Shown: positions 3,803-26,557 of the stretch, in pieces
Layout of the letters: every line of letters begins with the position of its first letter
Position numbering within the stretch: the first letter of the stretch is position 1
IMG/VR virus record: IMGVR_UViG_3300030294_000015
Coordinates: 30,153 to 94,152 of that record
Reading direction: 5' to 3' (one strand)
Origin: a virus
Length of the DNA stretch: 64,000 nucleotides
Notes under the pieces: model-generated
Databases searched by the model: none
The model's input: only the letters and a program-made list of their open reading frames with translations
Told to the model about the DNA's origin: nothing
Made by a program: the position numbers and the translations under genes

Positions 3803-5419
3803 GTGATATTATTGATAAAAATTATAGTAGACCATACAAAGATTATTATAAATGATTATGATTTAGGAGATTGTGAACCTTTAGAATATTTTTTTAGTAT
3901 ATATAATCCCATTACACATATAAGGTTTCCATTTGGTCTTCATTATATAGAAGAAAGGAGACAACTAATTATTCCTAGAGGTGTAGATATTTCTTATATA
4001 AGAAATTTATTTAAATCAGTTCCACAATTAAATAGAAAACATGACCCTATGGACAAAATAGAACCAATCGGACTAACCAATCCACCTAGAGATAATACGC
4101 AAAGAACAGCATTACGATTTATGTTAGGAAAAGATGAATTTTATTATACTTCTTCTAAATCTATGCTCAGTCTTAATTTATTACCAGGAAAAGGTAAGAC
4201 TTATTGTGCTATTGCAACCACAGCTTTTATTAGATATAGAAGTATCATGCTTACTTCTTCTTTAAAATGGATTAATCAATGGAAAGATGCTATATTAGAA
4301 CATAGTGATATAAAACCTAAAGAGATATTTATCATCTCTGGAACTCCATCTATTCATATGCTATTAAATAGAGGTGTTAATAATTACAAATTTATATTAG
4401 CTTCTATTGATACTATCATATCTTATGGTGAAAAATATGGATTTGATAAAGTATCAGAATTATTTATTAAATTAAGAGTAGGAATAAAATATGTAGATGA
4501 AGCTCATTTAGATTTTAAAGCTATAATGATGATAGATTTTTATACAAATACATATAAATCTTATTATATGACTGGTACTCCTATTAGATCAAATGAAGAT
4601 GAAGATAAGATATATAAAATGTATTTTAAGAATGTACCTTCTATAAATCTATTTGATGAAAATAAAGATCCACATACAGATTATTTAGCATTAAGATATA
4701 ATTCACATCCTAATCCACAAGATATATCTTATTGTAGAAATAAATATGGATTAGATAGAAATAAATATACTGGGAGTTATATTATAAGACGTCCTAATTT
4801 TTATAATATACTTAGAGTTATATTACATAAAACTCTTGCTAAAAAAGGAAAGATATTAATATATATTGGAGTTAATAAATCTATAGATAAAGTAAAAGAA
4901 TGGATTGAATTATACTATCCATTTTTAAAAGGTCATATAGGAGTTTATAATAGTGTAAATAAGGAAGATAAAAGTGAACAATTAAAAAAGAAATACATTT
5001 TATCTACTACTAAGTCATGTGGTGCTGCTATGGATATAAAAGGGTTAGCATGTTCAGTTATACTCGCTGAACCATTCAAATCGGAACCTCTAGCAATACA
5101 AACTTTAGGTAGAACAAGAGATGACAATACTATGTGTATAGAGGCTGTGGACGAAGGATTTAAAGCTATTATGAAATTCTATTACTATAAACAACCAATA
5201 ATGAAGAGGTATGCTAAATCAATAGATGAAGAAAGATATAATGATTATAGTCTAGAAAAACAAGTAGAAGAAATATTTGATATGTATTATGGTGATGGTG
5301 ATTTTCCAGAAATATATCTAGAGAATAATTTAAGATTATTTATGATGAGACAAGAATGTAGACCTTTAAACGAATATGATTCTAAAGGAAGAAAAATAAT
5401 TATGAGAAGGGATGGATAA
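3803..5419 (+). CDS. Superfamily 2 DNA helicase (UvsW/DExH-like)
   Basis: Walker A PGKGKT, motif II VDEAH, motif III TGTP, motif VI QTLGRTR. Confidence 0.9.
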   Translation: MILLIKIIVDHTKIIINDYDLGDCEPLEYFFSIYNPITHIRFPFGLHYIEERRQLIIPRGVDISYIRNLFKSVPQLNRKHDPMDKIEPIGLTNPPRDNTQRTALRFMLGKDEFYYTSSKSMLSLNLLPGKGKTYCAIATTAFIRYRSIMLTSSLKWINQWKDAILEHSDIKPKEIFIISGTPSIHMLLNRGVNNYKFILASIDTIISYGEKYGFDKVSELFIKLRVGIKYVDEAHLDFKAIMMIDFYTNTYKSYYMTGTPIRSNEDEDKIYKMYFKNVPSINLFDENKDPHTDYLALRYNSHPNPQDISYCRNKYGLDRNKYTGSYIIRRPNFYNILRVILHKTLAKKGKILIYIGVNKSIDKVKEWIELYYPFLKGHIGVYNSVNKEDKSEQLKKKYILSTTKSCGAAMDIKGLACSVILAEPFKSEPLAIQTLGRTRDDNTMCIEAVDEGFKAIMKFYYYKQPIMKRYAKSIDEERYNDYSLEKQVEEIFDMYYGDGDFPEIYLENNLRLFMMRQECRPLNEYDSKGRKIIMRRDG

Positions 5420-5422
5420 AAT

Positions 5423-5755
5423 ATGGTAGATAAAAAAGAAATAACAGATATTATGAATAATCCAGTGGCACGATATATAGTAGAAAATAGTGATAAAATA
5501 AAAAAGACACATAGTATTATAGATAATAAATTAAAAGAAGTTATTTCTAATAATATTATCAAAATAGGAAAATTAAAAAATTCACAAAAGTATCATGGAG
5601 ATTGGGAACCAATAACATTAAAAGGTATATCAGAGAATAGAGAAGTTGATATTATTAAAGAAGAAAATGATCCTATATATGGAAAAAGATATAAAATATT
5701 AGGATTTGATGAATGGATCGAAAATAATTGTTTTGAATATATAAAAGAAAAATAA
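5423..5755 (+). CDS. Hypothetical protein
   Basis: 110-aa ORF coupled to the helicase gene. Confidence 0.75.
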   Translation: MVDKKEITDIMNNPVARYIVENSDKIKKTHSIIDNKLKEVISNNIIKIGKLKNSQKYHGDWEPITLKGISENREVDIIKEENDPIYGKRYKILGFDEWIENNCFEYIKEK

Positions 5756-5775
5756 TTATGAGGAGGGATAAATAA

Positions 5776-5892
5776 ATGCTAGGTCATATATTAGATTATT
5801 CAATTGGAATTTTATGTATTATATTTGCAATTGCAATAATTATAACACCATTGTCAAAAGAAAAAGAAGAAGAGATTGAAAATGACGAATAA
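5776..5892 (+). CDS. Small single-pass membrane peptide (38 aa)
   Basis: RBS aggagg; MLGHILDYSIGILCIIFAIAIIITPLSKEKEEEIENDE. Confidence 0.65.
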   Translation: MLGHILDYSIGILCIIFAIAIIITPLSKEKEEEIENDE

Positions 5893-5943
5893 ATAGAAGG
5901 AGAATATTCTCCTTCTATATTTTACGTAAAAGTCTATAATTAT

Positions 5944-5963
5944 AATTGTATATTATAGAAGTG
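5944..5963 (+). promoter_or_regulatory. Putative early promoter
   Basis: AATTGTATATTAT-agaag-TG immediately after a terminator hairpin (5894-5919). Confidence 0.75.
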
Positions 5964-6004
5964 AATAATATAATAAAATATTTAATTTAAAGGAGTGTAT
6001 TAAA

Positions 6005-7405
6005 ATGGATATATTAATGAATGAAAAGGAATTAGTAAATATCAAAGAACAATTCTCATTTGACAAAATGGAAAGAGGTGTAAAGGGTTTATATGGTGCT
6101 GAGTACTATAATAAAGAAATGAAAGAATTTGAAAGTTTATTAAATTTTAAATTACTTGAATTAAATGAATTCAAAAAGATATCTATCAATGTAGAAGCAA
6201 TCAAAGAAGGATTCAAAATTATTATGAAATCTAAATATCATAATAGAATGAATATCGGATATCAAATTATACTTGCAAATAATATGGAAAGATTATTTGT
6301 AGATTACTTAAAATGGTTAGAGGGTTTAAAGAAATCAGATAAATTCTATGATACTTATATTTCAGACTTAAATAAATTTATGAATTCTAGACCAGAGGAT
6401 AAAAAGAAAGTTGAAGAATATTTAGATTTGTCTAAATCTGAAAAGAAAGAAGAATCTAAAGTAATTCAATTACCTGCGTCTAAAGAGAAAGAAGTAGAAA
6501 TTGTAAAAGGTAAAAAAGAAGCCAAAATGGAAAACAATGTTATAGATATTTCTCAATCAGAAGTAAAACCAGTAGAGCAAGAAGTTAGTAAAGACAATAA
6601 AGAAAACAATTTAAATAAAGAACAAGTTGTAAATGTCTTTAAGGATATCAAATCAGATTTTGAAGATGTAATGAGTTCTGTACAAGAAAAATTCAATAAG
6701 CTAAAACTAAAACAATGGCAATTAGTTGCCATTACTGGAAATGTATATAAAGCTATCGCAAATACAAATTCGTCAATATATAAATATGTATCACAATTAT
6801 TAGATTTAACATTTGTAGGTATAGAAGATAAAAAGGATTTAATTTATGATTCTTTATTAGCATTAGTAAATGAAGATTTATTACTTGCAGATTTTATTAC
6901 AGGCATTGAAACTCAATTATCTAAGAAAGAATACTTAGTAATATCTGGAAATATTATAAGGAATTTTGGAAAGTTGAAAACTGTAATATCAAATATGATT
7001 CCAGATATATTAGTAGATGCATTAGATGGTGTTGTTGAAAATGATCAAAAAATTAATATTATGGAAATGATACAAGAATTATCAGGTTTAAATTTACTTG
7101 ATATAAATAAATTCTGTGATATTGTAAAAACAGAAATACAAAAATCATCTGATACTCCAGAAGAAGATTTAAAAGAACTTCAAATAATAGTTGAAGGTGA
7201 TAAAAAAGAAGCTGCTATGTCTATGAATCCAGTACAACAACCACAAGAATTAAATGTTAATAGAAATATGGTTTCACAACAAATGACTTTTCCAGTAATT
7301 GGGGAACCTAGTGATTTACATGATTATGAAGGTAATGAAGGTGGGTTTGTTGTTGGAGGACGATTACCAAAAGTAATAGAACTATCAGAAGAAAAAGACA
7401 AATAG
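6005..7405 (+). CDS. Hypothetical early protein
   Basis: 466-aa ORF with its own promoter, RBS and terminator. Confidence 0.85.
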   Translation: MDILMNEKELVNIKEQFSFDKMERGVKGLYGAEYYNKEMKEFESLLNFKLLELNEFKKISINVEAIKEGFKIIMKSKYHNRMNIGYQIILANNMERLFVDYLKWLEGLKKSDKFYDTYISDLNKFMNSRPEDKKKVEEYLDLSKSEKKEESKVIQLPASKEKEVEIVKGKKEAKMENNVIDISQSEVKPVEQEVSKDNKENNLNKEQVVNVFKDIKSDFEDVMSSVQEKFNKLKLKQWQLVAITGNVYKAIANTNSSIYKYVSQLLDLTFVGIEDKKDLIYDSLLALVNEDLLLADFITGIETQLSKKEYLVISGNIIRNFGKLKTVISNMIPDILVDALDGVVENDQKINIMEMIQELSGLNLLDINKFCDIVKTEIQKSSDTPEEDLKELQIIVEGDKKEAAMSMNPVQQPQELNVNRNMVSQQMTFPVIGEPSDLHDYEGNEGGFVVGGRLPKVIELSEEKDK

Positions 7406-7498
7406 TAATTATAAAATAAGGGAGGAGCTTAAAGTTCTCCTTTATTTTTTATTTTTTACTCTCTAATCAACCTAAATGTAAGAGAGGGGATAGTTTAG

Positions 7499-8239
7499 AT
7501 GGAGTATATGGATTATGAAAAATTATCTGACGTAATTATGAATATTAGTTATAATACAGTTTTAAAAATGAATGTAGTATTGGGGAGAAAAGATAAGAAT
7601 AGTAGAAGAATTCATTTTTATAAAGAATTTTCATATAATAGTAGTAAGTATGTAAATGCTAATGAATTATATAATATAAATAGAAATTTTGATTATTATC
7701 TTTCAATAGAGAAATTTGAAAATGGTAAAGATTTCTTAATGATAAGAAATGAAAATATAATGGAATTACGATTATTTTTAAATAAAGTTGTAATAAATTG
7801 GTTAATAGATGATAATATATTTGATTATAGAAATGATAAGTTAGTTCTATTACAAGGAGGATATAAACCTGTAGAATATACATTATATGCTGATAAAAAG
7901 ATAATATTTTTACCTACAGTAATACATAATATAGATGGTACATATGGTAAAGGAATAAGAATATTATTAAATTCTGATTATAGTTTTGTAGATATGAATG
8001 CTTCTAAATTTTATGGTTTCTTATATAATATGAATTCAATTAATTTATTTCAATGTGCTCAAAATATGTTAAACTTTTTACAAAGACCAGAATTTGGAAC
8101 TAATCATACTGCATTTAATTATAAAAGTGAGTTTGATTCTGTCGTTGATGATATATCTGGTGGAGGGGATTCTATTAAAGGTGGAAGTTCAGTTGTAATG
8201 AAAAGAAAAAATGTATTTGATGAAATAGATAATATTTAA
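7499..8239 (+). CDS. Hypothetical protein
   Basis: 246-aa ORF; late promoter motif AACC-taaatg-TA at 7469-7480. Confidence 0.85.
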   Translation: MEYMDYEKLSDVIMNISYNTVLKMNVVLGRKDKNSRRIHFYKEFSYNSSKYVNANELYNINRNFDYYLSIEKFENGKDFLMIRNENIMELRLFLNKVVINWLIDDNIFDYRNDKLVLLQGGYKPVEYTLYADKKIIFLPTVIHNIDGTYGKGIRILLNSDYSFVDMNASKFYGFLYNMNSINLFQCAQNMLNFLQRPEFGTNHTAFNYKSEFDSVVDDISGGGDSIKGGSSVVMKRKNVFDEIDNI

Positions 8240-8295
8240 TTTATAAATGAACTTATATGTAAATAATTACCAATAATGAAGGGAGAGTAAATATT

Positions 8296-8631
8296 ATGAA
8301 AAAAGAAACAATAACTACACCAAAGTTCACAAAGAAAAATTGTGAACTCTTTCTATCTGGGTTAAAAATGGAAAAATTTGCTATTAGTTTAATAGTAGAA
8401 GCAATGGAGATATGTATTAAACATAAAACAAATCATGTAGATTTGGTTATGAAAAAAGTATATTCTGAATTAACTGAAAAACATCATACATTAAAAAGAG
8501 AATTAGAATGGGATTTGTATAAAACAATTAAATCTATTGATAAAGATTTAGTGAAAGAAAAATTAGGATATAATGATCATATTACAAATAAAAAATTCTT
8601 TATATTACTTTTAGAAAGATACGGATATTAA
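8296..8631 (+). CDS. Stand-alone Spo0A C-terminal (DNA-binding) domain-like protein
   Basis: LIVEAMEI...MKKVYSELTEKHHTLKRELEWDL...KLGY...TNKKFFILL aligns by eye with Spo0A YLREAI...[23 protein letters not shown]...FGY...TNSEFIA. Confidence 0.6.
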   Translation: MKKETITTPKFTKKNCELFLSGLKMEKFAISLIVEAMEICIKHKTNHVDLVMKKVYSELTEKHHTLKRELEWDLYKTIKSIDKDLVKEKLGYNDHITNKKFFILLLERYGY

Positions 8632-8673
8632 AAATAGATACAAGGTGTATATACACCTTGTATATTTTATGTT

Positions 8674-9468
8674 CTAATTCAATGTATACATGATGGGCTG
8701 ATTATAATTATCAGCCCCAACAAATGAATCATTGAATAATTGTATTATTTCCTCTCTTTTTTGGGCTTTAGTTTGAAGATCATCTAATCTTAAATTTGTA
8801 TTAGTAAATATAGTTTCTAATTGATCATAATACTTCAAATTTTCATATAAGAAAGTTGCTATATCTGCTTGAGCGAATTGTTCAAAATTTTCCATTTTAG
8901 TTGGTTCTATAGTTCCTAAATTATCGCTATGTTTAATTAACAAATTTACTTTAAAGTATTTTATATTAGTTTTACTCAAAAATTCTCCAGTAACACTTGT
9001 TAATTTTAATTTATTAGGAGTTTTAAAATCTATATAAATTCCATTACTAAATAATGATTGTCTATCTGCTGCTCCTTGAATTGCTGCAACTTGATCGAAA
9101 GAATAATTCATATTCATATTAAAAAATCCAAATGGAGATGTAGCAACATCATACCATCCTGGATTATCCATTCCAAATGCAGTTGGATCATCCCATGGGA
9201 TATCTTGTACACCTAATACTTCTATATTACCAGGAATAGTTTTCTCATCTATAATATAATATCCTTGACTATCAGTACTCATCTTAGAAGTATCAAATGT
9301 ATAAGGTATTATATTTGGAAAGTAAATAGAGAAAGTTTTCAATGTATAAGTAGATATCCATTCACCCCATTTATCTTTACAAATATCAGTTGGTAAATTT
9401 AAAGGTTTAGTACCTAATCTTAATTCTATAAGATTAACAAGTTTACTCATACTATTAGATAATGCCAT
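8674..9468 (-). CDS. Probable virion structural (neck/head completion-like) protein
   Basis: 264-aa ORF co-transcribed with the prohead protease; function inferred from context. Confidence 0.45.
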   Translation of the reverse strand: MALSNSMSKLVNLIELRLGTKPLNLPTDICKDKWGEWISTYTLKTFSIYFPNIIPYTFDTSKMSTDSQGYYIIDEKTIPGNIEVLGVQDIPWDDPTAFGMDNPGWYDVATSPFGFFNMNMNYSFDQVAAIQGAADRQSLFSNGIYIDFKTPNKLKLTSVTGEFLSKTNIKYFKVNLLIKHSDNLGTIEPTKMENFEQFAQADIATFLYENLKYYDQLETIFTNTNLRLDDLQTKAQKREEIIQLFNDSFVGADNYNQPIMYTLN

Positions 9469-9489
9469 ATTAATACACTCCTTTATTTT

Positions 9490-10350: not shown

Positions 10351-10376
10351 ATATTGTTCCTCCTTAATATATTAAT

Positions 10377-10432
10377 TAATTTAAAGTTCATTCTATAAAT
10401 CCATTAGGAATGATAGGGTTAACTTTAAATTA
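10377..10432. promoter_or_regulatory. Divergent pair of late promoters
   Basis: AACTTTAAATTA on the - strand (10377-10388) and on the + strand (10421-10432). Confidence 0.7.
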
Positions 10433-10450
10433 ATTGAAAATTGAAAGGAG

Positions 10451-12472: not shown

Positions 12473-12491
12473 TATAAGGAGGTAATAATAT

Positions 12492-13490: not shown

Positions 13491-13563
13491 TTTATTTTTT
13501 AATTTTATTACTGAATTGTTGAACTATAAAATAATATTATAATATTTAAAGGAGGTCATAATT

Positions 13564-15498
13564 ATGGCTACAGGAGGAACTAGAAAAAAGGATAACTACG
13601 CAGATGGGTACGAAAATAGCTCGTATGCTGGGTTATGTGAAGAATATAGTACATTAGCTAAAGATATAAGGGCACACGAAGGTTGTGATTTATTTGGACA
13701 ACCAGCTTTAGCGTTAAATAATCCAAACGTTGTTGCATCATTAGAAAATTTTTGGTTGAAGGACTCTTATGATCCAGTGTTATATGATGGAACTCATGGA
13801 AAAACATACAACCAAAGAGCTTTACAAGAACATATTTCAGATATGAAAGAATTATTTAAAAACGACGTAGAGGCTATCACAGAGTATACAGCAATGAACT
13901 CTGTAAATCCAATTGTTACTACTGGTCTTCCAATGCATAAATTAATTATGCTTAAAAATATTTTTAAACAAGGTATTATTCAAACTAATGTTGCTGTTGA
14001 ACCAAGATTTACAATTAAGATGCAACATAGATATTTGGTAAAGCCTGATGGAACTGCTCTTGATTTAGTATTAGATCAAGATAAGATTACAGATGCATTT
14101 AATTCAATAAATCCAGTTAGAACCATTACATTAGATTTTACTGGAAACATTTGTAATACAGCTTCATTAGCATCTGGTTCAAGATTGGTTGAACAATGTG
14201 GTGGTATATTAGGTAGAGACAATTTAAATACAGATTTAGCTATTACAGCTATTTATGTTGAAATGCCTACAACAGTTGCTACCACTTTAGCAGAAACTGC
14301 AACTGTTAATGTATCTCAAGGTGCTGGTAGTACATATCCAGATAAAGGAAGTGATACTGCTGTAACTGATGGTTCTACTTCTGGTGAATGGGGGCAAGGT
14401 AGTTATAATGTAGGTGCTACTTCTGGTGGATATACTGGTGTTAAACCTGCTGCTCCAGCTCCTACTACAACAGAAACAACTATTGTTAAATTAAAAAAGA
14501 ACATTATGTTTACACCTCAATATGGTCCAAACAATGTTCAAGGATTTACTCAAATTGTAGATCTTTCTGCATACTTACCAGGAGTAAATGAAATGATTTC
14601 TGGTACATTAGTAAATAACGAAATTATGCTTACAAGTGGAACAGGATATATTAAGAAAGTAGATATTAGGGTTCAATTAGATCCTTCTAATGCTATGCTT
14701 TCAACATGTAAAGCTAAATGGGGACATGATGAAACTTATGTTGTAATCCCAAATAGAAATCCAATGAATATTCCTATCTCTCCTGAAGAAGTAAAGGATA
14801 TTCAAGCTATGTATGGTGTAAGTCAATTATCTATGTATATGAGTATTATAAATGATGTACTTGGAAATGTTAAAGATGATACTATAAGAAGAGAATTATA
14901 TGCTTCTTATGATAGTATGCCATCATCTGAAAGAAGATATAGTTGGTTTGACTTTGAACCAAGAGAAGGATATAACAGAGATCATGTAAGTTGGAGATAT
15001 GCTTCATTTATGGATCTATTTGATACATTTGTAACTTCATTACTTTATATATTAAATGATGAAGATGTTACTGTATCTGTATTTGGTAGACCTGATATAA
15101 TCAGAAAGATTACTCCTACTGATTATAGTTATCAAGCTCCTTCTTCAGTAGGACCTGTTGATCTTGAATTTACAAGAACTATAGCTACTTCTGATAACAG
15201 AGTATATAACTTTATTAGTTCTCAAAAATTAGGAAATAGTAATGATTTAACAGTTATACTAAATCCGAATAATAGTGAAAGAATAATCTATAGAGTGTAT
15301 GATTATCAATTCTATATTTCTAATGAAATTAGAAATGCAGAGAACTATACATTACCTGGAATTCATGCGTTTGAAAGATTCAAATTTATGGAATACCAAC
15401 CAGTACAAGGTAAATTTAGAATATTCAATCCATCAGGTAGAAATGATCAAAATAGTAAATACACTGATCAAATTAAAGATTTAGCTGGAATAGAATAA
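13564..15498 (+). CDS. Major capsid protein precursor
   Basis: 644 aa, own late promoter (13522-13533), strong RBS, terminator at 15506-15533, near the protease and an acidic scaffold candidate; general resemblance to AR9-type capsid proteins. Confidence 0.75.
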   Translation: MATGGTRKKDNYADGYENSSYAGLCEEYSTLAKDIRAHEGCDLFGQPALALNNPNVVASLENFWLKDSYDPVLYDGTHGKTYNQRALQEHISDMKELFKNDVEAITEYTAMNSVNPIVTTGLPMHKLIMLKNIFKQGIIQTNVAVEPRFTIKMQHRYLVKPDGTALDLVLDQDKITDAFNSINPVRTITLDFTGNICNTASLASGSRLVEQCGGILGRDNLNTDLAITAIYVEMPTTVATTLAETATVNVSQGAGSTYPDKGSDTAVTDGSTSGEWGQGSYNVGATSGGYTGVKPAAPAPTTTETTIVKLKKNIMFTPQYGPNNVQGFTQIVDLSAYLPGVNEMISGTLVNNEIMLTSGTGYIKKVDIRVQLDPSNAMLSTCKAKWGHDETYVVIPNRNPMNIPISPEEVKDIQAMYGVSQLSMYMSIINDVLGNVKDDTIRRELYASYDSMPSSERRYSWFDFEPREGYNRDHVSWRYASFMDLFDTFVTSLLYILNDEDVTVSVFGRPDIIRKITPTDYSYQAPSSVGPVDLEFTRTIATSDNRVYNFISSQKLGNSNDLTVILNPNNSERIIYRVYDYQFYISNEIRNAENYTLPGIHAFERFKFMEYQPVQGKFRIFNPSGRNDQNSKYTDQIKDLAGIE

Positions 15499-15561
15499 TA
15501 TATTTCTACAGCAACTTAATTGTTGCTGTAGATTTTAATGTTATATAAGGAGGATATATGT

Positions 15562-16722: not shown

Positions 16723-16789
16723 ATTAATAGATAATGTATATTATAAATATGATAGATAACAGAATTTCTGTTATCTATATTTTAAAATT

Positions 16790-17718
16790 ATGGAGGTATA
16801 TAATATGAAAAACTTTATGACAAGAGGTGAAATTGTAGATCAGAATTATTTAAGAGAGTTACAAGAAAAAATAGATTTTGAATCTACCTTGCCAGAAAAG
16901 AAAATATTTATGACGAGAAGCCAGATTCCAGAAAAAACACATCCATTAATTGGATTTAACACAATTACAAATTTTGGTACATATATGGAGGTGATTAAGT
17001 ATAATAATTGTTTTGATATGGATGTTATCATGATAAATTTATTAAGTAATGGAGATATAAAATATACAACAAAAAATATAAGAACTTCATATATTAAAAA
17101 AGGAAATATAATGTCTCTATATGATAAATCATGTTATAATACTGGGTATATCGGAGAAGGTCATTATTCTTTTAAAAGTAATGAAAATATGCATAAAAGT
17201 TGGGTTCATATAATGGAAAGAGGATATGACTCTAAATTAAAAGAAAAATACAATACATATAAAAATGTAACTGTAGATCCTTATTTTCATAATTTACAAA
17301 ATTTTGGAAAATGGTATGATGAAAATTATTATGAATTTGAGGGAGAAACTATGTGTTTAGACAAAGATATATTAATTAAAGGTAATAAAATATACAGTCC
17401 TAATACATGTTGTTTTGTTCCACAATACATAAATGTATTGTTTACTAAATGTGATAAAACACGTGGTGATTTACCATTGGGAGTTACACAAAAATATAAA
17501 AAATATTATTCACATATTAGTATAAAAAATGAGAATCAAAAAATAGGTGGTTTTGATATACCAGAAGAAGCTTTTTATGCTTATAAAGAAGCTAAAGAAA
17601 CTGAAATTAAAAGAATAGCTGATTATTATCTTTATGAAAAGGAGGAATCTATATACCACAATATAGAGATATAGTTTATCCTGCGATGCTTAGATATAAA
17701 GTAGAAATAACAGATTAG
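16790..17718 (+). CDS. Free-standing HNH-family homing endonuclease; frameshift near 17640 alters the C-terminus (ORF track 16790..17674)
   Basis: LDKDILIKGNKIYSPNTCCFVPQYIN motif and AP2-like GGFDIPEEAFYAY; family-typical end YKVEITD lies in another frame ending 17718. Confidence 0.8.
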
Positions 17719-17784
17719 AAAATAATAGAAAATTAATTTTCTATAAACTATAAAGTATATAATATAATTTGAGGAGGAATATAT

Positions 17785-18570
17785 ATGTCATTAAACGACG
17801 CTGGAAATTATAATAATAATAAAGATAGGGATTATAGAGTGACTGTCTATAGTTCAAATACATTTAGTAATGTTGATAGTACAATAGAAAAATCAAAATT
17901 AACTTATACATTTTGGAAGGGTTTATTAAAAATATCTATAGCACCAATGATTCCAAGTAATGATGATTCAGTAAATTTTGATTATAAAAAAGAAAGTTCT
18001 ATTTATCTTTCACCAATGCTTGCTTCTATGGGTTATAAAAAATTTAAAGAATTTATGGAAAATCCAGATAAATTTGAATCTAGAAGTATTCCAACTAGAA
18101 GTGGTGCATTAATTAAATTATGTAAAGGAGAACAATATGGTATTAAAGGACATGTATTGGTTATTGAGAAAATAGGAGAAGATGGATCTATTATAGGAGG
18201 TCATTTATACGAATTTAATACAGATAAGTATTATGGTATAGATAATATAAATGAAGATGATTTTAGTTTTGATAAATCATATTATAAAGATCTTGAGATA
18301 GATTTCTTATTACTAACATTAAAATCATTTTATGAATATTCTGTTGGATCGTCTGCTTACTTTAATATGGATTATAATAGATTTGAACAATCTAGATTAA
18401 CAGGTAAATTGAATAAAATAGGAATTGCTCTCAATATAGAAGATAAGTCTGGGTATAATAAAGGATATGGTGGAAGTAAAAATAGTCCTTTTGAATCTAA
18501 TAAGAATAATAACTCTTCATCAAATAATGATGAATATTCTTATAATGATATAGAAGAACAACTTGAATAA
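17785..18570 (+). CDS. Hypothetical protein, candidate ssDNA-binding protein
   Basis: Beta-rich core, N/S/G-rich linker and acidic C-terminal tip (YNDIEEQLE). Confidence 0.4.
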   Translation: MSLNDAGNYNNNKDRDYRVTVYSSNTFSNVDSTIEKSKLTYTFWKGLLKISIAPMIPSNDDSVNFDYKKESSIYLSPMLASMGYKKFKEFMENPDKFESRSIPTRSGALIKLCKGEQYGIKGHVLVIEKIGEDGSIIGGHLYEFNTDKYYGIDNINEDDFSFDKSYYKDLEIDFLLLTLKSFYEYSVGSSAYFNMDYNRFEQSRLTGKLNKIGIALNIEDKSGYNKGYGGSKNSPFESNKNNNSSSNNDEYSYNDIEEQLE

Positions 18571-18618
18571 ATTAATTTAAAAGGGAATTTATACTTCCCT
18601 TTTATTTTTTCTTGTGAG

Positions 18619-19215
18619 GTGAAAATTTTGCAAAAAGTGTTATTTTCATTTAGTCTAATATTTGATATTGAATATGGTTTATATAAACATATTATGAATG
18701 AATATGATGAGAATTACTTTAAATTTAAATTTAAAGATGATATTTATTTAAAGAATATAATTATGTTTAGAGACAAACCAAATCCTTTATCAAAGATATG
18801 TACAAAATTGACTAAAGATAATATAGATGATATATATGAAGATATAATGAAAAATGAATATGATAAAGTATTAGAAAATGTTATAAGCACAGATTTGATA
18901 GATTACATATCAATTCTAAAAGGTACTAATAGATATGAACCTAATATATTATGTAAAAATAAACAAGAAGAACAAATATGTAAACAGAATGATCTTATAC
19001 CAATCTATAATATCGATAATGAATGGGAAATTTTTTCCAAAGAATTTTATTCATTATATTTTAGATATTTTGATGAAATCGATATAACAGAGATAGATGG
19101 AATGAATATATACTTTTCAAATACATTATATAATATAATAAACAAAAAACAGTTAATATCTATAAATAATATAATAAGATTTATAGATTTATATACAATT
19201 AAAAAACCAATTTAG
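18619..19215 (+). CDS. Hypothetical protein, possibly degenerate HAD fold
   Basis: ORF is clear; VLFSFSLIFDIEYGL resembles HAD motif I without the catalytic Asp. Confidence 0.5.
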   Translation: MKILQKVLFSFSLIFDIEYGLYKHIMNEYDENYFKFKFKDDIYLKNIIMFRDKPNPLSKICTKLTKDNIDDIYEDIMKNEYDKVLENVISTDLIDYISILKGTNRYEPNILCKNKQEEQICKQNDLIPIYNIDNEWEIFSKEFYSLYFRYFDEIDITEIDGMNIYFSNTLYNIINKKQLISINNIIRFIDLYTIKKPI

Positions 19216-19228
19216 GAGGAATAATAAA

Positions 19229-21130
19229 ATGAAAATTGTAAAGAATAATGTTATTAATAAGGAAGCAACTAGATTATTTCAATCTGAAACTTTAAAAGGA
19301 TTAGCTGAGTCTATCTTAACATCTGCTGGACCTATGGGTTCATTGTCCAAGATAATACTTCACATGGCTCAAGATCCAAATAGCCCAAATAGAAATAGAC
19401 CTATAGTAAAGTATACAAAGGATGGACATAGTATACTAAGTTATATAACTCATTGTGATAATGGTTTATTATGTAATTCAGTAGCAAATGATACATATGA
19501 TGTAACCGCTTATGTAAAAAAGAAAACAGGTGATGGATCTACAGGAGCAGTTAATATGGCTTCTTTAATATTTGATAATCTTATAGAAATTGAAACAGAA
19601 ACAAAACTACCTCCTAGAGAAATTATGAAACAATTTGGACAAGCTGTAGACTTAATTTCAGAAAAGATTAAATCTTATGCTATACCTTTTACATCTGATG
19701 AAGCTTATAATATAGCTTATATATCTTCAAATGGTGATGAAGAAATAGCTTTAAATATTAAACAAATTTATGAAGAATTTGGTAATGATGTATTTATTGA
19801 TGTAGATATATCAACAGATGAAATTAGTAGAATGAAAATATTAGATGGTATGAGTATTAATACTGGATTTAATAGTCCTGCTTATATAAACAATCAACAA
19901 AAAGGAACTGCTAATATTCAAAAGCCTAGAATTTACTATTTTAGAAATACAATTGATACACCAGAACAAATTGAATTGTTAGCTTCTATTATAATGAATA
20001 ATATTCTAACACCATATCATACAAGACAACTACAAAATGTAAAGCCTACTGTTATTTTAGCACCACATTTAGCTAATGATACTTTGGTTGAATTAAATGA
20101 AGTAATTAAATTAATGAATATGTATAATAGTCCTGAATTAATTGCTAATAAACCACCATTACTTGTAGTTACAAATATCAATGCAGATGAAGCTACAGAT
20201 GATATTGCTCAATTATGTGGATGTCCTATAATAAGAAAGTATCAATCTACAGAACAAAGAGATAAAGATAGATCAGAAGGAAAAGCTCCTACATCAACAA
20301 CTATAACTGAAGAATGGTATGGAACTGCTGATGTAGTCGAATCTGATGCTGTATCAACTAAGTTTATAAATCCTAAATTAAAATTCTCTACAAAAGGAAA
20401 AGAAAGAAAAAGAATTTGTGAACAAAATAGAGAAAAATTTGTTTCAGAAGAAGATGATGATGAATCTGTGGATAGTTCAGAATTCAAAGCACTAGTATCT
20501 TCATTAGAAGCAATGTTAAAAAAAGAAAAGAATGAAAATGCTACAATAGATATAATTGGTAGATTAGAAAGAAGAATAAAGTCACTAAAATCTAAAGTTG
20601 TTATATACCAAGTTGGTGGTATAAGCGTAACTAAAAGAGATTCAGTACAAGATTTAGTTTGGGATTCTGTTAAGAATTGTAGATCTGCTGTTAAATCTGG
20701 TGTTGGTTATGGATGTAATATGGAAGGATATTTTGCATGTAGAGAACTTCTAGAAAGACCAACAGAATTAGATTTATCAGAAACAAATGTGAAGTTTATA
20801 GAAATGGTATTTGATTCTTATAGATCATATATTACTAAATTATATATGTTCTCATTTGGTATCGAACAAGAAGATGCAGAACAATTATTAGATACTAATT
20901 CTAGAGATAGTATTATAGACATAGCTAAAGGATATAATGAAGGGGATGTTGAGTACAGTGATTCTATTAAATCATCTATAGATACTGATGTAGTTGTATT
21001 AGAAGCTATTTCTAAAATAGTATCATTAATGATGACATCTGCACAAACTATAATTCCAGATCCAATGTTAGACTCATATACTTCAACTGCTGAAACAATA
21101 CTTAAAAATAGATTAGTTCAAAATGTATAA
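19229..21130 (+). CDS. groEL: Phage-encoded GroEL-like chaperonin
   Basis: SAGPMG, TKDGHSIL, TGDGSTGA, VGYGCN, SIDTDVVVLEA correspond to Cpn60 motifs TLGPKG, TKDGVTV, AGDGTTT, VxGGG. Confidence 0.9.
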   Translation: MKIVKNNVINKEATRLFQSETLKGLAESILTSAGPMGSLSKIILHMAQDPNSPNRNRPIVKYTKDGHSILSYITHCDNGLLCNSVANDTYDVTAYVKKKTGDGSTGAVNMASLIFDNLIEIETETKLPPREIMKQFGQAVDLISEKIKSYAIPFTSDEAYNIAYISSNGDEEIALNIKQIYEEFGNDVFIDVDISTDEISRMKILDGMSINTGFNSPAYINNQQKGTANIQKPRIYYFRNTIDTPEQIELLASIIMNNILTPYHTRQLQNVKPTVILAPHLANDTLVELNEVIKLMNMYNSPELIANKPPLLVVTNINADEATDDIAQLCGCPIIRKYQSTEQRDKDRSEGKAPTSTTITEEWYGTADVVESDAVSTKFINPKLKFSTKGKERKRICEQNREKFVSEEDDDESVDSSEFKALVSSLEAMLKKEKNENATIDIIGRLERRIKSLKSKVVIYQVGGISVTKRDSVQDLVWDSVKNCRSAVKSGVGYGCNMEGYFACRELLERPTELDLSETNVKFIEMVFDSYRSYITKLYMFSFGIEQEDAEQLLDTNSRDSIIDIAKGYNEGDVEYSDSIKSSIDTDVVVLEAISKIVSLMMTSAQTIIPDPMLDSYTSTAETILKNRLVQNV

Positions 21131-21194
21131 TAACAAATAAAATAATACCGATGGATTTAATTTCCATCGGTAATTTTTATAAGGAGTTGATATA

Positions 21195-21983
21195 ATGGAA
21201 ATGTCTTTTCCAGAATATATTGAAAATCCATCTGGTAATAAAAATGGTGTTTGGACACATAGAGCTATGTATAAAGATATGTATGGTCAAAAACTTACTA
21301 AGATAATAGTAAGAGAAACTGGTAAAGTAAACTACACTTTATATTATACTAAAGATACATATACAATACATTTTAAAATACCATCTGAAGTTGTGCCTAA
21401 ATTTTATTATGACACAGTAATTATGTTTTATATCAATGATCAATTTATTTCTAATAATAATAATATTAGAAAGTATAATGTAAAATTCTATTCTAATGAT
21501 CCAGCATTTGTATTTACATTTGCTTATTCCTTTTTAAAGAATGATATGTTTATAAAAGATTTAATTCCAAAAATGAGTAAAGAAGCAGTTAAGAAAGCTG
21601 CGGTAGAAACAAATCCTAAAAATGAAATTGGATATGTAAAATCTATTTACTTTGCTTATCTATTAATGGATAAATATAATCTATGGAGTAAGTCTACATT
21701 TACTATGTATGGTGAAAAATATGATAAATCTAAATTATTATCAAAGATAGAAAATGCTGATAAGAAAATAGATGATAGACAAAAACAAGCAGAAGATATT
21801 AGGAAACAAAATAAGATAGAAAAAGAGAAATCTAAAAATAAAAGGAAATCAAATCCTAATGATGTGAAAATTACTAACAATGTAAATACTTCGAGTAAGA
21901 TAATGTCTAGTATTAAAACTAAAACTGTGGGTACAATAAAGAATATAAGTAATAATAAAAACCCCAATTTTAAAAAGTTTTAG
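21195..21983 (+). CDS. Hypothetical protein with basic C-terminal tail
   Basis: 262-aa ORF with RBS, between chaperonin and sigma-like gene. Confidence 0.8.
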   Translation: MEMSFPEYIENPSGNKNGVWTHRAMYKDMYGQKLTKIIVRETGKVNYTLYYTKDTYTIHFKIPSEVVPKFYYDTVIMFYINDQFISNNNNIRKYNVKFYSNDPAFVFTFAYSFLKNDMFIKDLIPKMSKEAVKKAAVETNPKNEIGYVKSIYFAYLLMDKYNLWSKSTFTMYGEKYDKSKLLSKIENADKKIDDRQKQAEDIRKQNKIEKEKSKNKRKSNPNDVKITNNVNTSSKIMSSIKTKTVGTIKNISNNKNPNFKKF

Positions 21984-22003
21984 AATTATATATTATATAC
22001 TTG
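21984..22003 (+). promoter_or_regulatory. Putative early promoter
   Basis: AATTATATATTAT-atact-TG upstream of the sigma-like/primase operon. Confidence 0.7.
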
Positions 22004-22020
22004 AAGGAGGAGATTAAATT

Positions 22021-25000
22021 ATGAAAAAATTTATGACAAGGGACGAAAACAAAAAAATCATCAGTGTTTCAGATTGGCAGGCAGAACCACAAGATTTATT
22101 AATTATGCAAATAAATGATTATATAATCGCACCTGTTTCAAAATATTTCAATGCGGATCAAAGTATGGATTATTTTTCAGTAAGATCTAAAAAAGCATAT
22201 AATAGACCTGAACTTAGAGCACTAATAGTACATAAATTGAATTACTTTGAAAAGTTCTATGATACTGATAAAGAGTTGTTAGCTGTATATGCTAATATAA
22301 AGTATCTTATAGATTGTGAGCCTAACTATACTAAAGAATCATTATTCTATGATCTAAAGAAGTACATAATTCATGGACCATCCTTATCATTAAAAATGGA
22401 CTATATGAATAAGGATAATTATAGACCAGCAAAAATTAAATTTAATGGAAGCGATAGGTTATTATACTATGATAATAGTCATATATATATAATGATGAGA
22501 ATATCATTAACTATGACAGCTATTATTCCATTACTAACTCATTTTGCCAATAAGAAAAAAGTACAATTGATAGAACCCTTTCTATTAGAAATTTATTCTT
22601 ACATTATTAGATCATATAGTGATTTTGTAGATTTATATTCTAAATATACAGGAACTTGTGCTACTATTATATCTAAGAATAAAAGATATAATAGTATATG
22701 GAATAATCAGGATATAAGATCTATAAATGAAACTACTCAAACAATAGCATCTGTAAATAATATCATAGTAAACATTATGCCAAAATATATATATAATGAC
22801 TCCGCAGTCACTTTGAACTTCGCATCTGTAGGTAATGTTATTAAGTATAAAATAACTGATGCTGGGTATGATTTTGCTTATTCTTCTCTCAGTTCATCAG
22901 ATAGGGATTTTGAAGAGATAAGCTCATTTGATAAGTATGAGGCATTGCTAAGTAAGTGTGATCGGTTTGGTCACTTCTCTATAGTAATATAGAGTCGAAT
23001 AACTCTCTATAAATTGCTGGGAAGCTCACAAAAGTTCATAAACCATAATAGAAATAAAAATGGTAACGAAAGCAGAAACAATATATGAACCTGACATATG
23101 CTGAAATAAAAGCCTATTATATAGGTGCTAAGTGTTATTGACAAGGAGTAATCAGCAGCAAATTAATATTATCATCTTAAAAAATACGAATAAGAAGGGA
23201 AAGATATTTATACAATTAAAATCATTTATGACACGAGATATACCTAATCCTAATCATACATTTCTAAAGAAAAACGGTTTACAACAATTCATGATAAGAG
23301 AACCATTTTTATTTGAAGAATGGGTACAAATATGTACATTCTTACCAGAAGTGAAAGAATATTATTGGATAAGTAATCATGGTAAAGTATTAAATAATAA
23401 ATCCATACCATTTGTACATATGAATATTAACTTGGATAACCGTGGATATGAACAAATTTCATTGTCTACAAATAATGGAGGTAAAACTTTTAAAGTACAT
23501 AGATTAGTAGGAATAGCATTTAATTATATAGATAATTATGAAGAATTGACAGTGAATCATTTAGATGCAAACAAACGTGATAACTATTCATATAATTTAC
23601 AATGGGCTACTAATTATGAAAATATGAGACATGCATGTGAACATGGTTTGTTTCCTGTTGGTGAAGATTCCTTTTTAAGTATATTATCTAATAATGATGT
23701 AGAAAATATATGTAAATATCTTCAAGAAGGATTACCATTTGAAACTATTATAGAAAATGTTCCAAACATGAATAATCTTAGATACCCAATATCTTCAATA
23801 TGGTCTATTTATAGTAGATGGGCATGGAAACATATTTCTAAAAAATATGAGTTTAGTATCTATAAAGGTAATAGATTTAAATTTAATAATAATGAAATTA
23901 TTAAAATATGTGAATATTTGGAACAAAATCTAGATTATAAAGAAATAATAAAAGGATTAGGATATGATATAACTAATATGTCTAAAGAAACTTTAAAGGA
24001 ATATAATCATTCTATTAGTACTATAAGATTAAAACAAACCTATACTGAAATATCTAAAGATTACAATTTTCATACTGAAAGAAGTTATCAAAAATTTAAT
24101 ACAGATGAAATACATGAAATTTGTTTTTATTTACAAAGCGGTTTAGATTATGAAAAAATACTAAAAAGAATGAATGTTGTTCCTAATAATGAAACAGAAC
24201 TGTATAATTATAAATGTGTAATATCAAGAATAAAAAGCAGAAGATGTTTTCAAAATATATCAAACAATTATGAATTTTAAGATGATAATTAATTTGTTCA
24301 ACGACTATCGAAAGCTATATACTAAGACGATATTCTTAGTTGAAAATAAGGTATTAGAGATAATACACGAAGCAAGTAGAGTAGAGCCAAGTGGTAAGGT
24401 TTCTCGTAATAAGAGATATAATACCTTTTAAATCGAAACAAGAGAGCTGCCTATATATTCGTTATAGGTAGATGATATAGTCTACTATCTTACTTAACAG
24501 TAAGGAAGTTTATAATAAAACTGTACTATCTAACGAATAGTATGAATACTAGGGAAGCCTTAGTTCTCCAGAATAATGTAAATGGAGAACAAGCAATGCA
24601 ATTAATAAGAATGTCATTTGGACCTTTTGATAATAATGAAATAGAATTTTATAGAAGAAGATTAAATGTTGATAACTCTGGAGTTATTCATACATTCCAG
24701 AAAGACTTAATATTTAATATCTTTTATAAGTATTTCGGTGATACTATGTCTGTTAATACTATAAATGAAACAGATTATATTATTTTATTATTAGCTGCAA
24801 AGAAAATATCAGAACAATCTAAATGTAGATATCTTCCATATGTATTTAGTGGCAGAATTACTCGATATGTAAGGAAAACAAAATTAAATAAAAAAGAAAA
24901 AGATAAAATGATTACTTCTCCTGATTATAGATTGATTCAACAAATGTATAGAACATCAAAAGTTTTAGACCAAATGGAATCTTATGCCGCTACTATTTTA

Positions 25001-25117
25001 TATAGTGATTTTGAAATGATTGATTATAAGAATCCTCAAAATGATGGTGTAATGTTACCAAAGTTTCCTGAATTAGTTGTACATGAAATACAGAAGTATG
25101 TGTTATGGATTTCCTAA
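22021..25117 (+). CDS. Spliced gene join(22021..22962,24554..25117), 501 aa; probable promoter-specificity (sigma-like) subunit of the non-virion RNAP (AR9 gp226/phiKZ gp68-like)
   Basis: Exons join in frame (..LLSKCD|EALVLQNN..); size, early promoter and position two genes from the chaperonin match AR9 gp228/gp226 as I recall them. Function inferred. Confidence 0.6.
22963..24553 (+). ncRNA. Group I intron (1591 nt) with HNH ORF in the P6 loop
   Basis: P1 gtgaT/Gtcac with U.G pair; P ttgctgggaa, Q aatcagcag, R gttcaacgactat, S gatatagtct; terminal G at 24553; inverted repeat 23161-23182/24275-24295 encloses the ORF. Confidence 0.9.
23204..24280 (+). CDS. Intron-encoded NUMOD4/HNH homing endonuclease with repeated C-terminal helical DNA-binding units (start uncertain)
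   Basis: YWISNHGKV, KVHRLVG, VNHLDANKRDNYSYNLQW; three repeats of xxxEIxxICxYLxxxLxY. Confidence 0.85.
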   Translation: MFIQLKSFMTRDIPNPNHTFLKKNGLQQFMIREPFLFEEWVQICTFLPEVKEYYWISNHGKVLNNKSIPFVHMNINLDNRGYEQISLSTNNGGKTFKVHRLVGIAFNYIDNYEELTVNHLDANKRDNYSYNLQWATNYENMRHACEHGLFPVGEDSFLSILSNNDVENICKYLQEGLPFETIIENVPNMNNLRYPISSIWSIYSRWAWKHISKKYEFSIYKGNRFKFNNNEIIKICEYLEQNLDYKEIIKGLGYDITNMSKETLKEYNHSISTIRLKQTYTEISKDYNFHTERSYQKFNTDEIHEICFYLQSGLDYEKILKRMNVVPNNETELYNYKCVISRIKSRRCFQNISNNYEF

Positions 25118-25118
25118 T

Positions 25119-26162
25119 ATGAATAATGAAACTATTAATAGAATAAATAATAGATTATTAGAAATCCCAGGTGCTAAGTTGGTACAAGGAAATCGATGGA
25201 TTATTATTAGATGTATGTATTGTGGTGATTCATTAAATAGTACTCATGCACATTTCGGTATTCATTTACCAGTGAATGAAGATGATTTATATTACTTTAA
25301 TTGCTTTAAATGTCATACTACTGGAAGATTGACAACAGATACATTAATGACATTCGGTATTTTTGATGTGGATATTATAAGTGGATTATCTAATTGGAAT
25401 AAAAGAGTATTATCTAGACCTGAAAATAGAATATTTAAAGATCAAATATATATGGTGAAAAATTCACATATAAATCAATCTAAATTAACTGATGCTAAAT
25501 TGAATTATATAAATAATAGATTAGGAATTAATATGACTTATAAAGATATACTAGATAAAAAGATAATTCTTAATATAAATGATTTATTAGATGAAAATCA
25601 TATTACTAAACTTACTAGAGACCCTAATGTAGTAAAACAACTAGATGGTGGGTTTCTAGGTTTCTTATCTCAAGATAATGCTTTTATTAATATGAGAAGA
25701 TTAGTTAATGAAGAAAAAGTAATGGAACCTCTAAGAAAGAGATATGTAAATTATAATCTATTTGGTAAATTTGATAATACTCAAAAATATTATACTATTC
25801 CTACTACAATTAGATTAGATAATCCTAAAAAGATAAAATTAAAAATAGCAGAAGGACCTTTTGATATTTTATCTATATTTTATAATTTATCTAACCAAGA
25901 TACTGATAATTGTATTTACTCATCTATAACTGGTTCTGGATATATTAACATATTAGAATTCTTTCTTATTAAGAAAAGATTAATAAATATGGAAGTAGAT
26001 ATCTACATGGATAGTGATATAAAAGAAAGAGTATTATATGCTATAAAGCAATTATTAGACTACTTTGGTGTACCTTTACGGCTTCATCGTAATATTTATC
26101 CAGGAGAAAAAGACTTCGGTGTCAAACATTCAAAAATACAGGATCAGATATTGAATATCTAG
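25119..26162 (+). CDS. DNA primase (Zn-binding and TOPRIM domains); ATG 25119 more likely than 25077
   Basis: RCMYCGDS...FNCFKC zinc finger; IAEGPFDIL and YMDSD TOPRIM motifs; KDFG. Confidence 0.85.
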   Translation: MNNETINRINNRLLEIPGAKLVQGNRWIIIRCMYCGDSLNSTHAHFGIHLPVNEDDLYYFNCFKCHTTGRLTTDTLMTFGIFDVDIISGLSNWNKRVLSRPENRIFKDQIYMVKNSHINQSKLTDAKLNYINNRLGINMTYKDILDKKIILNINDLLDENHITKLTRDPNVVKQLDGGFLGFLSQDNAFINMRRLVNEEKVMEPLRKRYVNYNLFGKFDNTQKYYTIPTTIRLDNPKKIKLKIAEGPFDILSIFYNLSNQDTDNCIYSSITGSGYINILEFFLIKKRLINMEVDIYMDSDIKERVLYAIKQLLDYFGVPLRLHRNIYPGEKDFGVKHSKIQDQILNI

Positions 26163-26212
26163 AAGGATAGGTCAAATCCTATCCTTTATTTTATAGAAAG
26201 AAGGAATTTAAT

Positions 26213-26557
26213 ATGATATACATAATAAATGATGAAGAACAAGAAAAAGTTAAGAAAGCTTTAGCTGATAATTCTATTGAATTTAAAAACTTTGATACTC
26301 CGTTAGATGCTTTTGTATATGAAGAATCTATATATAGAACAAATGAATATGAAAAAGAAAATAATGTTAAATTTACTGAAGAATGTAGAGATACAATGGA
26401 AGGAACAATAGAAGGATTTTTGTCTACAAATAATTTTTTAGATAATGATCACTTATGTGATTTAGTTGAAGAAGCTATTGATAATGCAATGGATTATTGT
26501 AAAAAAGAAAATCTAAAAGTATTTATGACTAGAGAAGAAGAAACAAAGGAGGATTAA
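26213..26557 (+). CDS. Small acidic protein with C-terminal FMTR motif
   Basis: 114-aa ORF with RBS; ends LKVFMTREEETKED. Confidence 0.8.
   Translation: MIYIINDEEQEKVKKALADNSIEFKNFDTPLDAFVYEESIYRTNEYEKENNVKFTEECRDTMEGTIEGFLSTNNFLDNDHLCDLVEEAIDNAMDYCKKENLKVFMTREEETKED

Follow-up and report, generated by a model that had tools for sequence, protein, structure and literature searches.

The 64,000-nucleotide stretch of DNA analysed here (the window) comprises positions 30153-94152 of a 94-kb virus contig (IMG/VR record IMGVR_UViG_3300030294_000015) with a G+C content of 25%. CheckV places the contig at ~39% of a genome. Its relatives are uncultured jumbo phages of 210-263 kb, the closest complete one being a phage of 263 kb with 75% identity in the N-terminal half of the DNA polymerase (Pol-N), designated G001 in what follows, and the nearest cultured relatives form the AR9/PBS1 group, with a polymerase identity of ~28%. 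PHROG and Pfam searches identify a split B-family DNA polymerase (Pol-N and Pol-C), pieces of a multisubunit RNA polymerase (RNAP), an SF2 helicase and several HNH endonucleases. This report concerns a short peptide, typically FMTR, that recurs near the ends of these and other unrelated proteins and is referred to here as the tag. A preliminary description of the window had read it as a candidate docking or localisation signal. All the FMTR-type copies that it listed were recovered in a six-frame scan, in frame and within real open reading frames (ORFs). The copies and the genes that carry them are as follows, proteins being sized in amino acids (aa).

3803..5419, plus strand: SF2 (ResIII-type) DNA helicase, tag carrier, orthologue of AR9 g156 (phrog_16 DNA helicase, E 5.5e-21; weak Pfam ResIII match)
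5339..5350, plus strand: tag FMMR (LRLFMMRQE) in the helicase C-tail; the G001 orthologue has KKIFMLRQE at the same place
5399..5410, plus strand: variant tag IMRR (RKIIMRRDG) at the C-end of the helicase, with RKVFMKRDKF as its counterpart in the G001 orthologue
16790..17674, plus strand: free-standing HNH endonuclease (phrog_953 HNH, E 2e-49)
16814..16825, plus strand: tag FMTR (MKNFMTRGE) at the N-end of the free-standing HNH endonuclease
16907..16918, plus strand: second tag FMTR (KKIFMTRSQ) in the N-tail of the same protein
22021..22992, plus strand: first part of a 'sigma-like' gene, which resumes at 24554-25114 after a 1.59-kb insert
22030..22041, plus strand: tag FMTR (MKKFMTRDE) at the N-end of the sigma-like protein
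23132..24280, plus strand: NUMOD4/HNH_3 endonuclease ORF lying within the insert of the sigma-like gene (weak, sub-threshold Pfam matches to HNH_3 and NUMOD4)
23225..23236, plus strand: tag FMTR (LKSFMTRDI) of the insert HNH endonuclease; the ORF start is uncertain, and an ATG inside the motif could be the start
23288..23299, plus strand: tag FMIR (LQQFMIREP) of the insert HNH endonuclease
26213..26557, plus strand: 114-aa acidic protein, tag carrier (no Pfam or PHROG match)
26522..26533, plus strand: tag FMTR (LKVFMTREEETKED-stop) in the C-tail of the 114-aa acidic protein

The IMRR element at 5399, previously described as degenerate, has a true FMKR as its counterpart in G001. Translation of the free-standing HNH endonuclease probably starts at the second ATG (16805), which is preceded by GGAGG 8 nt upstream and gives a protein that begins MKNFMTRGE; its paralogues at genome positions 18558-19421(-) and 20065-20901(-) carry LKKFMTRD.PNKNNHP, where dots here and below stand for any residue. 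The 114-aa acidic protein has no orthologue among the nine genomes compared and no detectable relatives. No Pfam or PHROG family matches the sigma-like gene, whose split structure is apparent from an uninterrupted 510-aa orthologue in G001: residues 4-321 of that protein match 22012-22965 and residues 321-510 match 24554-25114 (tblastn), leaving an insert at 22966-24553. Within the insert, a sub-threshold match to Intron_gpI lies at 24383-24505 (24.7 bits, E 0.0011); an Rfam scan at the gathering threshold and a tRNA scan of the window found nothing.

Enrichment and terminal position of the tag

In the set of 102 contig ORFs used for counting, FMTR occurs seven times against an expectation of 0.064 (Poisson 8e-13), a number reached in none of 2000 within-protein shuffles, and it is the most over-represented 4-mer of the contig proteome by six orders of magnitude. 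The looser form FM.R occurs 16 times, compared with a shuffle mean of 1.1, and 13 of these 16 copies fall within the first 45 or last 75 residues of their proteins (P 6e-4). Written out in full, the tag of the contig is [M/L]-K-x-F-M-x-R-[D/E]. The same bias is seen on a larger scale in the complete G001 genome, where 41 FM.R copies are spread over 32 proteins, versus 3.1 in shuffled sequences (with a maximum of 9 in 500 shuffles); 35 of the 41 are terminal (P 7e-9) and 23 lie no more than 15 residues from an end (P 5e-12). Given that the contig is only ~39% complete and that its closest complete relative reaches 263 kb, counts from the contig understate the reach of the tag.

The signal is carried by the peptide. 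When the corresponding DNA pattern is sought on both strands, 16 of its 21 occurrences are in the coding frame, and the codons vary, with AGA, AGG, CGA and CGG all used for arginine and both TTT and TTC for phenylalanine. The preliminary description, which had argued for conservation at peptide level and had proposed a count against shuffled proteomes and a test for enrichment at protein termini, is borne out on each of these points.

These counts also bear on the possibility that the peptide recurs through chance, paralogy or repetition at DNA level and has no shared function. Paralogy does contribute, as four of the seven exact FMTR copies come from three endonucleases of a single paralogous family, whose N-termini agree over the longer stretch FMTR(D/S)..P.....HP. 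When paralogues are collapsed, however, ~8 independent families of FM.R carriers are left, still far above the shuffle mean; these, and the 32 proteins in G001, compare with one to three expected, and a frame-specific pattern with varying codons is not that of a DNA repeat. The comparison with related phages, to which we now turn, is decisive on this question.

Lineage-specific versions of the tag

Searching for relatives with Pol-N as the query gave 42 loci, and the genomes compared in full were seven whole relatives together with AR9, the sole tag-free comparison. The polymerase clade closest to the contig (75% Pol-N identity) retains FM.R, with three FM.R copies 12 residues apart on the tail of Pol-N. 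More distant clades (43-50% Pol-N identity) show no FM.R enrichment; their Pol-N tails instead bear three tandem copies of another short motif, and that motif reappears at the ends of neighbouring proteins. The motifs of seven more distant relatives, none of them enriched for FM.R, are LFHK, EM[CV]KIV, KAFS, GM[VI]Y, LF.[YF], [DE]VI.[FY] and V[IV].F.

Ranking 4-mers over whole proteomes was dominated, in the complete relatives, by internal repeats of large proteins, a difficulty that was resolved by restricting the ranking to protein ends and to distinct proteins. With 4-mers ordered by the number of distinct proteins bearing them in terminal windows, the lineage motif headed the list in four genomes and was second or fifth in another two.

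G000: FMTR, ranked first
G001: FMTR, ranked first (9 proteins); FMKR in 6 and FMVR in 5
G002: LFHK, ranked second
G003: EMVK and MCVI, with EMVK ranked first
G004: KAFS, in 9 proteins, ranked just after 4-mers belonging to an unrelated repeat family
G005: GMVY and GMIY, ranked first

No terminal 4-mer stood out in G006 or G009, where the motif is more degenerate; there, orthologue ends that were read by eye and not ranked give LF.[YF] and [KR][DE]VI.[FYH], respectively.

The key observation is that each lineage carries its own tag at the same end of orthologous proteins. This is the case for Pol-N, the RNAP beta-N, beta-C and beta'-C pieces, the SF2 helicase, a DnaB-like helicase, an SbcD-like nuclease, the sigma-like protein and a 100-aa Zn-ribbon protein. 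Orthologues of the sigma-like protein, for example, start with MKKFMTREP in G001, MIEMCKIVD in G003 and MIRGMYYGD in G005, whilst the SF2 helicase ends in PIKLFHKIE in G002 and has three GM[VI]Y copies in its tail in G005. The arrangement of copies is maintained as well: Pol-N orthologues have three tags ~12 residues apart, Pol-C orthologues have the lineage tag in one internal loop, and the C-tail of the 748-aa RNAP beta-C orthologue of G006 (L118-L129) bears six tandem LF tags at a spacing of 10-12 residues. In AR9, a terminal k-mer scan revealed no tag-like motif, and the AR9 orthologues are 32-135 residues shorter at the end that is tagged elsewhere. Of the two patterns that the preliminary description had envisaged for homologues in other phages, absence of the tail and possession of a different tag, the first is thus seen in AR9 and the second in the uncultured relatives, as a docking tag would predict.

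The tag is, therefore, recoded in step across orthologues in every related lineage. Its versions switch between phages whose Pol-N proteins are 43-63% identical, and all share one template, namely a basic residue, two hydrophobic residues, any residue, then R, K, Y or F, and finally an acidic residue. Replacement that is concerted and yet conserves position excludes chance, paralogy and repeats at the level of DNA, none of which can give rise to lineage-specific replacement at orthologous ends; together with the shuffles it refutes the absence of any shared function, to which we attach virtually no probability. Such replacement is, on the other hand, what the co-evolution of many ligands with a single reader predicts. 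Judged from sequence comparison, the short peptide is very probably a docking tag read by some shared phage-encoded partner.

Carriers and non-carriers

All of the carriers that can be annotated with PHROG belong to DNA, RNA and nucleotide metabolism. Replication, late transcription and DNA cutting are all represented, by Pol-N and Pol-C, the two helicases (SF2 and DnaB-like), the sigma-like subunit and three pieces of the non-virion RNAP; further carriers are the SbcD-like nuclease, small Zn-ribbon proteins and homing endonucleases. Pol-N (contig 740-2785) has two FM.R copies and a related VFMRK ~12 residues apart in its tail, plus one internal copy. Beyond the window, the contig also encodes a tagged RNAP piece ending in TIFMKRE, a tagged Pol-C and three more tagged endonucleases. 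The tagged RNAP pieces (579, 706 and 722 aa) are orthologues of the AR9 non-virion RNAP proteins g089, g105 and g154.

The Pol-C gene is itself interrupted (contig 20915-24840, minus strand, outside the window; L002): its parts are an exon at 24397-24840 with the motif-B sequence NSLYG at its end, then an HNH ORF at 22846-24102, then an exon with the DTDS motif at 20915-22363. Pol-N lies on the other strand, 20 kb away.

Several other genes in the window either lack the tag or contain only a resemblance to it.

13564-15498: major head protein, untagged (phrog_20655)
19229-21130: GroEL-like chaperonin, untagged (phrog_5725, E 4e-48)
25077-26162: DNA primase, untagged (phrog_19847)
44625..44642, plus strand: FLEMTR at the end of a Zn-ribbon protein, unsupported as a tag
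50248..50259, plus strand: FMVR in a PC4-like single-stranded DNA-binding protein (Pfam PC4, E 2.2e-6), not a tag

No carrier has a structural annotation, and the absence of FMTR from structural proteins, noted in the preliminary description, holds for the major head protein. The PC4-like protein carries no tag, nor does the clamp-fold protein described below. The part of the preliminary description that did not survive is the FLEMTR sequence, which it had counted as a weak copy: this does not fit F-M-x-R, and the sole orthologue found, in G002, is a longer fusion without FLEMTR. What stands of its reading is a terminal, docking-type element, acting at peptide level, on proteins that act on DNA or RNA, and replaced in step across lineages.

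The FMVR of the PC4-like protein was considered as a tag and rejected, as it falls in a conserved helix of the PC4 domain, where orthologues that use other tags have VFIEE, VLVEQ and LLEE. This protein (window 50044-50451) has a different feature at its end, an acidic tail with a [FY]YDP..[LI] core which, unlike the tag, is conserved over lineages G000-G004. The tail recalls the partner-binding C-terminal tips of single-stranded DNA-binding (SSB) proteins.

The nature of the carriers makes it possible to weigh a further explanation, that the tag is a degron or protease site timing the removal of early and middle proteins, or else a capsid-targeting or prohead-protease signal. Its terminal position would suit such a role, and its short hydrophobic-basic composition resembles that of some terminal degrons. 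The turnover of the motif between lineages, however, speaks against recognition by a conserved host protease, and a degron would not account for three to six tandem copies or for the copy in the internal loop of Pol-C. As for capsid targeting, the carriers are non-virion enzymes, whereas the major head protein and other structural genes are without the motif. We consider an explanation of this kind very improbable.

The homing endonucleases deserve separate mention, as the preliminary description had linked their tags to access to phage DNA. The association is clear within the FM.R clade, where all five endonucleases of the contig and most of those in G001 are tagged, but does not extend to G002, G005 and G006, whose endonucleases lack a clear lineage tag. 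In the contig and in G001 the endonuclease tags sit on N-terminal extensions that are absent from the AR9 homologue. The endonucleases appear to have acquired the resident tag, which may give them access to the phage DNA. A different endonuclease-related gene in the window is a 1011-aa ORF (36396-39431), residues ~527-781 of which show 33-37% identity to a protein of jumbo phages (AR9, PBS1 and Staphylococcus S6-like phages), the 'endonuclease fused to N-terminal Zn finger'; outside these residues it has no match in the phage collection.

A clamp-fold protein as candidate receptor

The gene next to Pol-N offers a candidate for the partner that reads the tag. A 206-aa protein is encoded at genome positions 2790-3410, outside the window, starting 5 nt after Pol-N, and the ORF is conserved and syntenic in most relatives (and in every one of the 29 distinct sequences from the Pol-N loci). 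Prediction from the single sequence gave a predicted local distance difference test (pLDDT) score of 32, but with an alignment of 22 rows the model reached a pLDDT of 85 and a predicted template modelling (pTM) score of 0.82. The top 49 Foldseek matches of this model in the PDB are all sliding clamps, the best being bacteriophage T4 gp45 with a ligase peptide (E 4.6e-4), and gp45 structures among the best matches are 6drt_A, 1b77_A and 3u61_F. VIA-align superpositions on PCNA and gp45 give Z 9.9-10.6 over ~180 of the 206 residues at a root-mean-square deviation of ~4.1-4.2. In BFVD, the matches are uncharacterised gut phage proteins (TM 0.70-0.76) and then clamps and chimallivirus RNase H-clamp (Rhc-type) proteins. 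The 206-aa protein is thus confidently predicted to have a two-domain PCNA/gp45-type clamp fold over its whole chain.

None of this is visible in the sequence. No Pfam clamp family matches any of the 22 members at E up to 1, there is no PHROG match, and a profile run against PDB sequences gave one chance-level match only; across ~ten lineages identity is ~20%. The predicted clamp family is new at the sequence level. A homologue is present in all nine of the tag-bearing genomes, although relocated in G009, and a profile search detected none in AR9, whose syntenic gene, g131, is annotated as a DnaQ-like exonuclease.

The preliminary description had named a clamp, an SSB protein, a replication compartment and a shell import factor as hubs to which the tag might recruit its carriers. 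Amongst these the clamp is favoured, since a hidden clamp-fold protein adjoins Pol-N; no shell protein was found in a single-sequence search with phiKZ chimallin. We propose that the tag, placed on flexible N- or C-terminal extensions and once on an internal loop, would be read in all its copies by one phage-encoded receptor, and that tags and receptor would drift together, giving each lineage a private version on a common template. The most likely receptor would be the 206-aa clamp-fold protein, acting as a 'tool belt' in the style of PCNA or gp45 that concentrates tagged enzymes on phage DNA. It could in this way, like T4 gp45, couple late transcription to replicated DNA, and resident homing endonucleases would have co-opted it. 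The role of the clamp as receptor, its oligomeric state and all functional consequences are what we infer here, and we put the chances of the complete proposal, docking tag and clamp-fold receptor together, at about even.

A point in favour of the clamp is that the list of tag clients parallels that of T4 gp45, whose known clients include the polymerase, ligase, gp33 and gp55 (PMC6212786, PMC7892883). There are also several points that weigh against it. The tags match neither the PCNA-interacting protein (PIP) box nor the bacterial QL[SD]LF motif, and tandem copies ~12 residues apart seem, on our estimate, too close to occupy two pockets of one ring. Clamp motifs known from other systems persist over very long periods, unlike this tag. 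The clamp-loader family PF13177 has no match in G000-G003, though 13 of 14 control genomes are positive for it; G001 has three classical AAA+ ATPase paralogues in tandem (34721-38252; L050:14721-18252; 323, 340 and 390 aa; PF00004), which are without clamp-loader-specific domains. At least 36 other clade-conserved proteins also have no match in AR9, such that co-occurrence with the tag is not specific to the clamp. Finally, phiKZ Rhc, the closest relative of such a protein to have been studied, assists the polymerase as a monomer and does not act as a ring hub (PMC13648687).

Some of these same points lend themselves to a reading in which the peptide still serves for docking, though on another phage protein, such as the scaffold of a replication-transcription factory, a single-stranded DNA-binding protein or some other clade-specific protein, with the clamp-fold protein serving only as a processivity subunit of the polymerase, like phiKZ Rhc. 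The 36 or more clade-conserved proteins fit the phyletic pattern equally well, phiKZ Rhc sets a precedent for a clamp derivative that is monomeric and polymerase-bound, PF13177 revealed no clamp loader in G000-G003, and three to six tandem tags spaced 10-12 residues apart would suit a multivalent scaffold. Yet no specific alternative candidate emerged, and the clamp is the sole conserved protein whose fold is known for reading short terminal peptides on exactly these clients; its gene, moreover, adjoins that of the triple-tagged polymerase subunit. A different receptor is a serious but tentative alternative.

A more distant alternative is that the tag does not bind a clamp at all but serves as an address label that directs proteins to a DNA-containing compartment or condensate, either by signalling import or through homotypic 'stickers' of the beta-strand type. 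Reviews of the phage nucleus place DNA polymerase, helicases, non-virion RNAP and nucleases inside the chimallivirus nucleus, and condensate stickers typically occur as multivalent tandem copies. The phages described here also share with the chimalliviruses a split polymerase and multisubunit RNAPs. Against this, phiKZ chimallin (gp54) has no match in G000-G003, in a single-sequence search that found chimallin itself but can miss distant homologues and so is a weak negative. Chimallivirus cargo is, furthermore, reported to be recognised via folded surfaces and not via terminal signals (PMC12908238), whereas the element shared here is a terminal linear peptide. An import signal would also be expected on the primase (25077-26162), the PC4-like protein and the clamp-fold protein, all of which are untagged, unless these piggy-back on other proteins. 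We regard an address label as improbable. Slightly less so, though still unlikely, is the related idea that the tag constitutes a phage-private address code, read by a receptor other than a clamp, that gathers the replication and late-transcription machinery and the selfish endonucleases into one DNA-associated compartment or condensate. Were it true, bacteriophages would have a terminal-signal system, distinct from chimallivirus import by surface patches, and rapid recoding of the signal between lineages would keep out the enzymes of competitors.

To return to the clamp as the preferred receptor, jumbo phages of the phiKZ/AR9 type have been described as having no classical sliding clamp (PMC7824862), and a clamp-derived polymerase subunit has been recognised in phiKZ only recently (PMC13648687). 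An uncultured clade of 210-260-kb phages would now appear to have a clamp-fold protein that stands alone and escapes detection at sequence level. Across the proteomes of the same clade, dozens of DNA and RNA enzymes bear a peptide tag, which each lineage has recoded in step. If tag and clamp are connected, the T4-like tool belt would also take in homing endonucleases and the subunits of a multisubunit phage RNA polymerase. By means of the tag, the replication and transcription 'interactome' of an uncultured phage can be listed from sequence alone, and this extends to many small proteins with no assigned function. Cognate and non-cognate pairs of tag and receptor would be a natural set of orthogonal peptide-receptor modules, and one receptor turning over fast and in concert with more than 30 tag copies would be an unusual and tractable case of co-evolution between a linear motif and its reader.

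How does the proposed system compare with those already known? No published description of such a tag turned up in the literature on clamps, jumbo phages, chimallin and the AlkB homologue 2 PCNA-interacting motif (APIM), in which the motif itself was not searched for. Clamp-interaction peptides in general are similar in being short motifs on the flexible ends of polymerases and other DNA enzymes, common to unrelated clients, and in PIP box and APIM systems many unrelated clients use one pocket under the interdomain loop. The tag form [ML]-K-x-F-M-x-R-[DE] nevertheless fits neither Qxx[LIM]xx[FY][FY] nor QL[SD]LF. With the APIM consensus, [KR]-[FYW]-[LIVA]-[LIVA]-[KR] (PMC7261172), it shares a five-residue format of basic, aromatic, hydrophobic, any and basic residues, and 4 of the 13 terminal copies read K-F-M-T-R. 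The conserved lysine of the tag, however, usually stands two residues before the phenylalanine and not one, methionine and threonine are outside the APIM consensus, and the GM[VI]Y and EMCKIV motifs of other lineages do not fit, making this a likeness at the level of format only.

The bacterial beta-clamp motif QL[SD]LF likewise occurs as short terminal peptides on polymerases and repair enzymes, and is also used by transposases (PMC4549789), a case of mobile-element enzymes bearing the motif that parallels the tagged homing endonucleases seen here. It differs in its consensus, in belonging to a host clamp and not a phage clamp, and in being conserved across bacteria, where the tag is private to each lineage.

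Also comparable are phiKZ, a member of the same wider phage group whose polymerase is similarly split into N and C subunits (DNAP-N and DNAP-C) and has a clamp-derived accessory protein, Rhc, and, for the accessory protein, herpesvirus UL42. Rhc is an RNase H fusion that is monomeric and binds the polymerase thumb via a large surface (PMC13648687). Chimallivirus RNase H proteins are among the structural matches of the clamp-fold protein, but the latter stands alone, and no common peptide tag has been reported for Rhc.

A further parallel is gp45 of T4 and RB69, likewise a phage-encoded protein with the two-domain clamp fold, which is served by short hydrophobic peptides on the flexible ends of polymerase and late-transcription factors (the tails of gp43, DNA ligase, gp33 and gp55). 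The clamp-fold protein has no sequence similarity to gp45 or to any Pfam clamp family, and no loader of the gp44/62 type was found in G000-G003. The tag differs too, being of another sequence, present at both N- and C-ends and in tandem arrays, and subject to turnover between lineages. It is also found on far more proteins (the 32 of G001), amongst them the RNA polymerase subunits themselves and the homing endonucleases.

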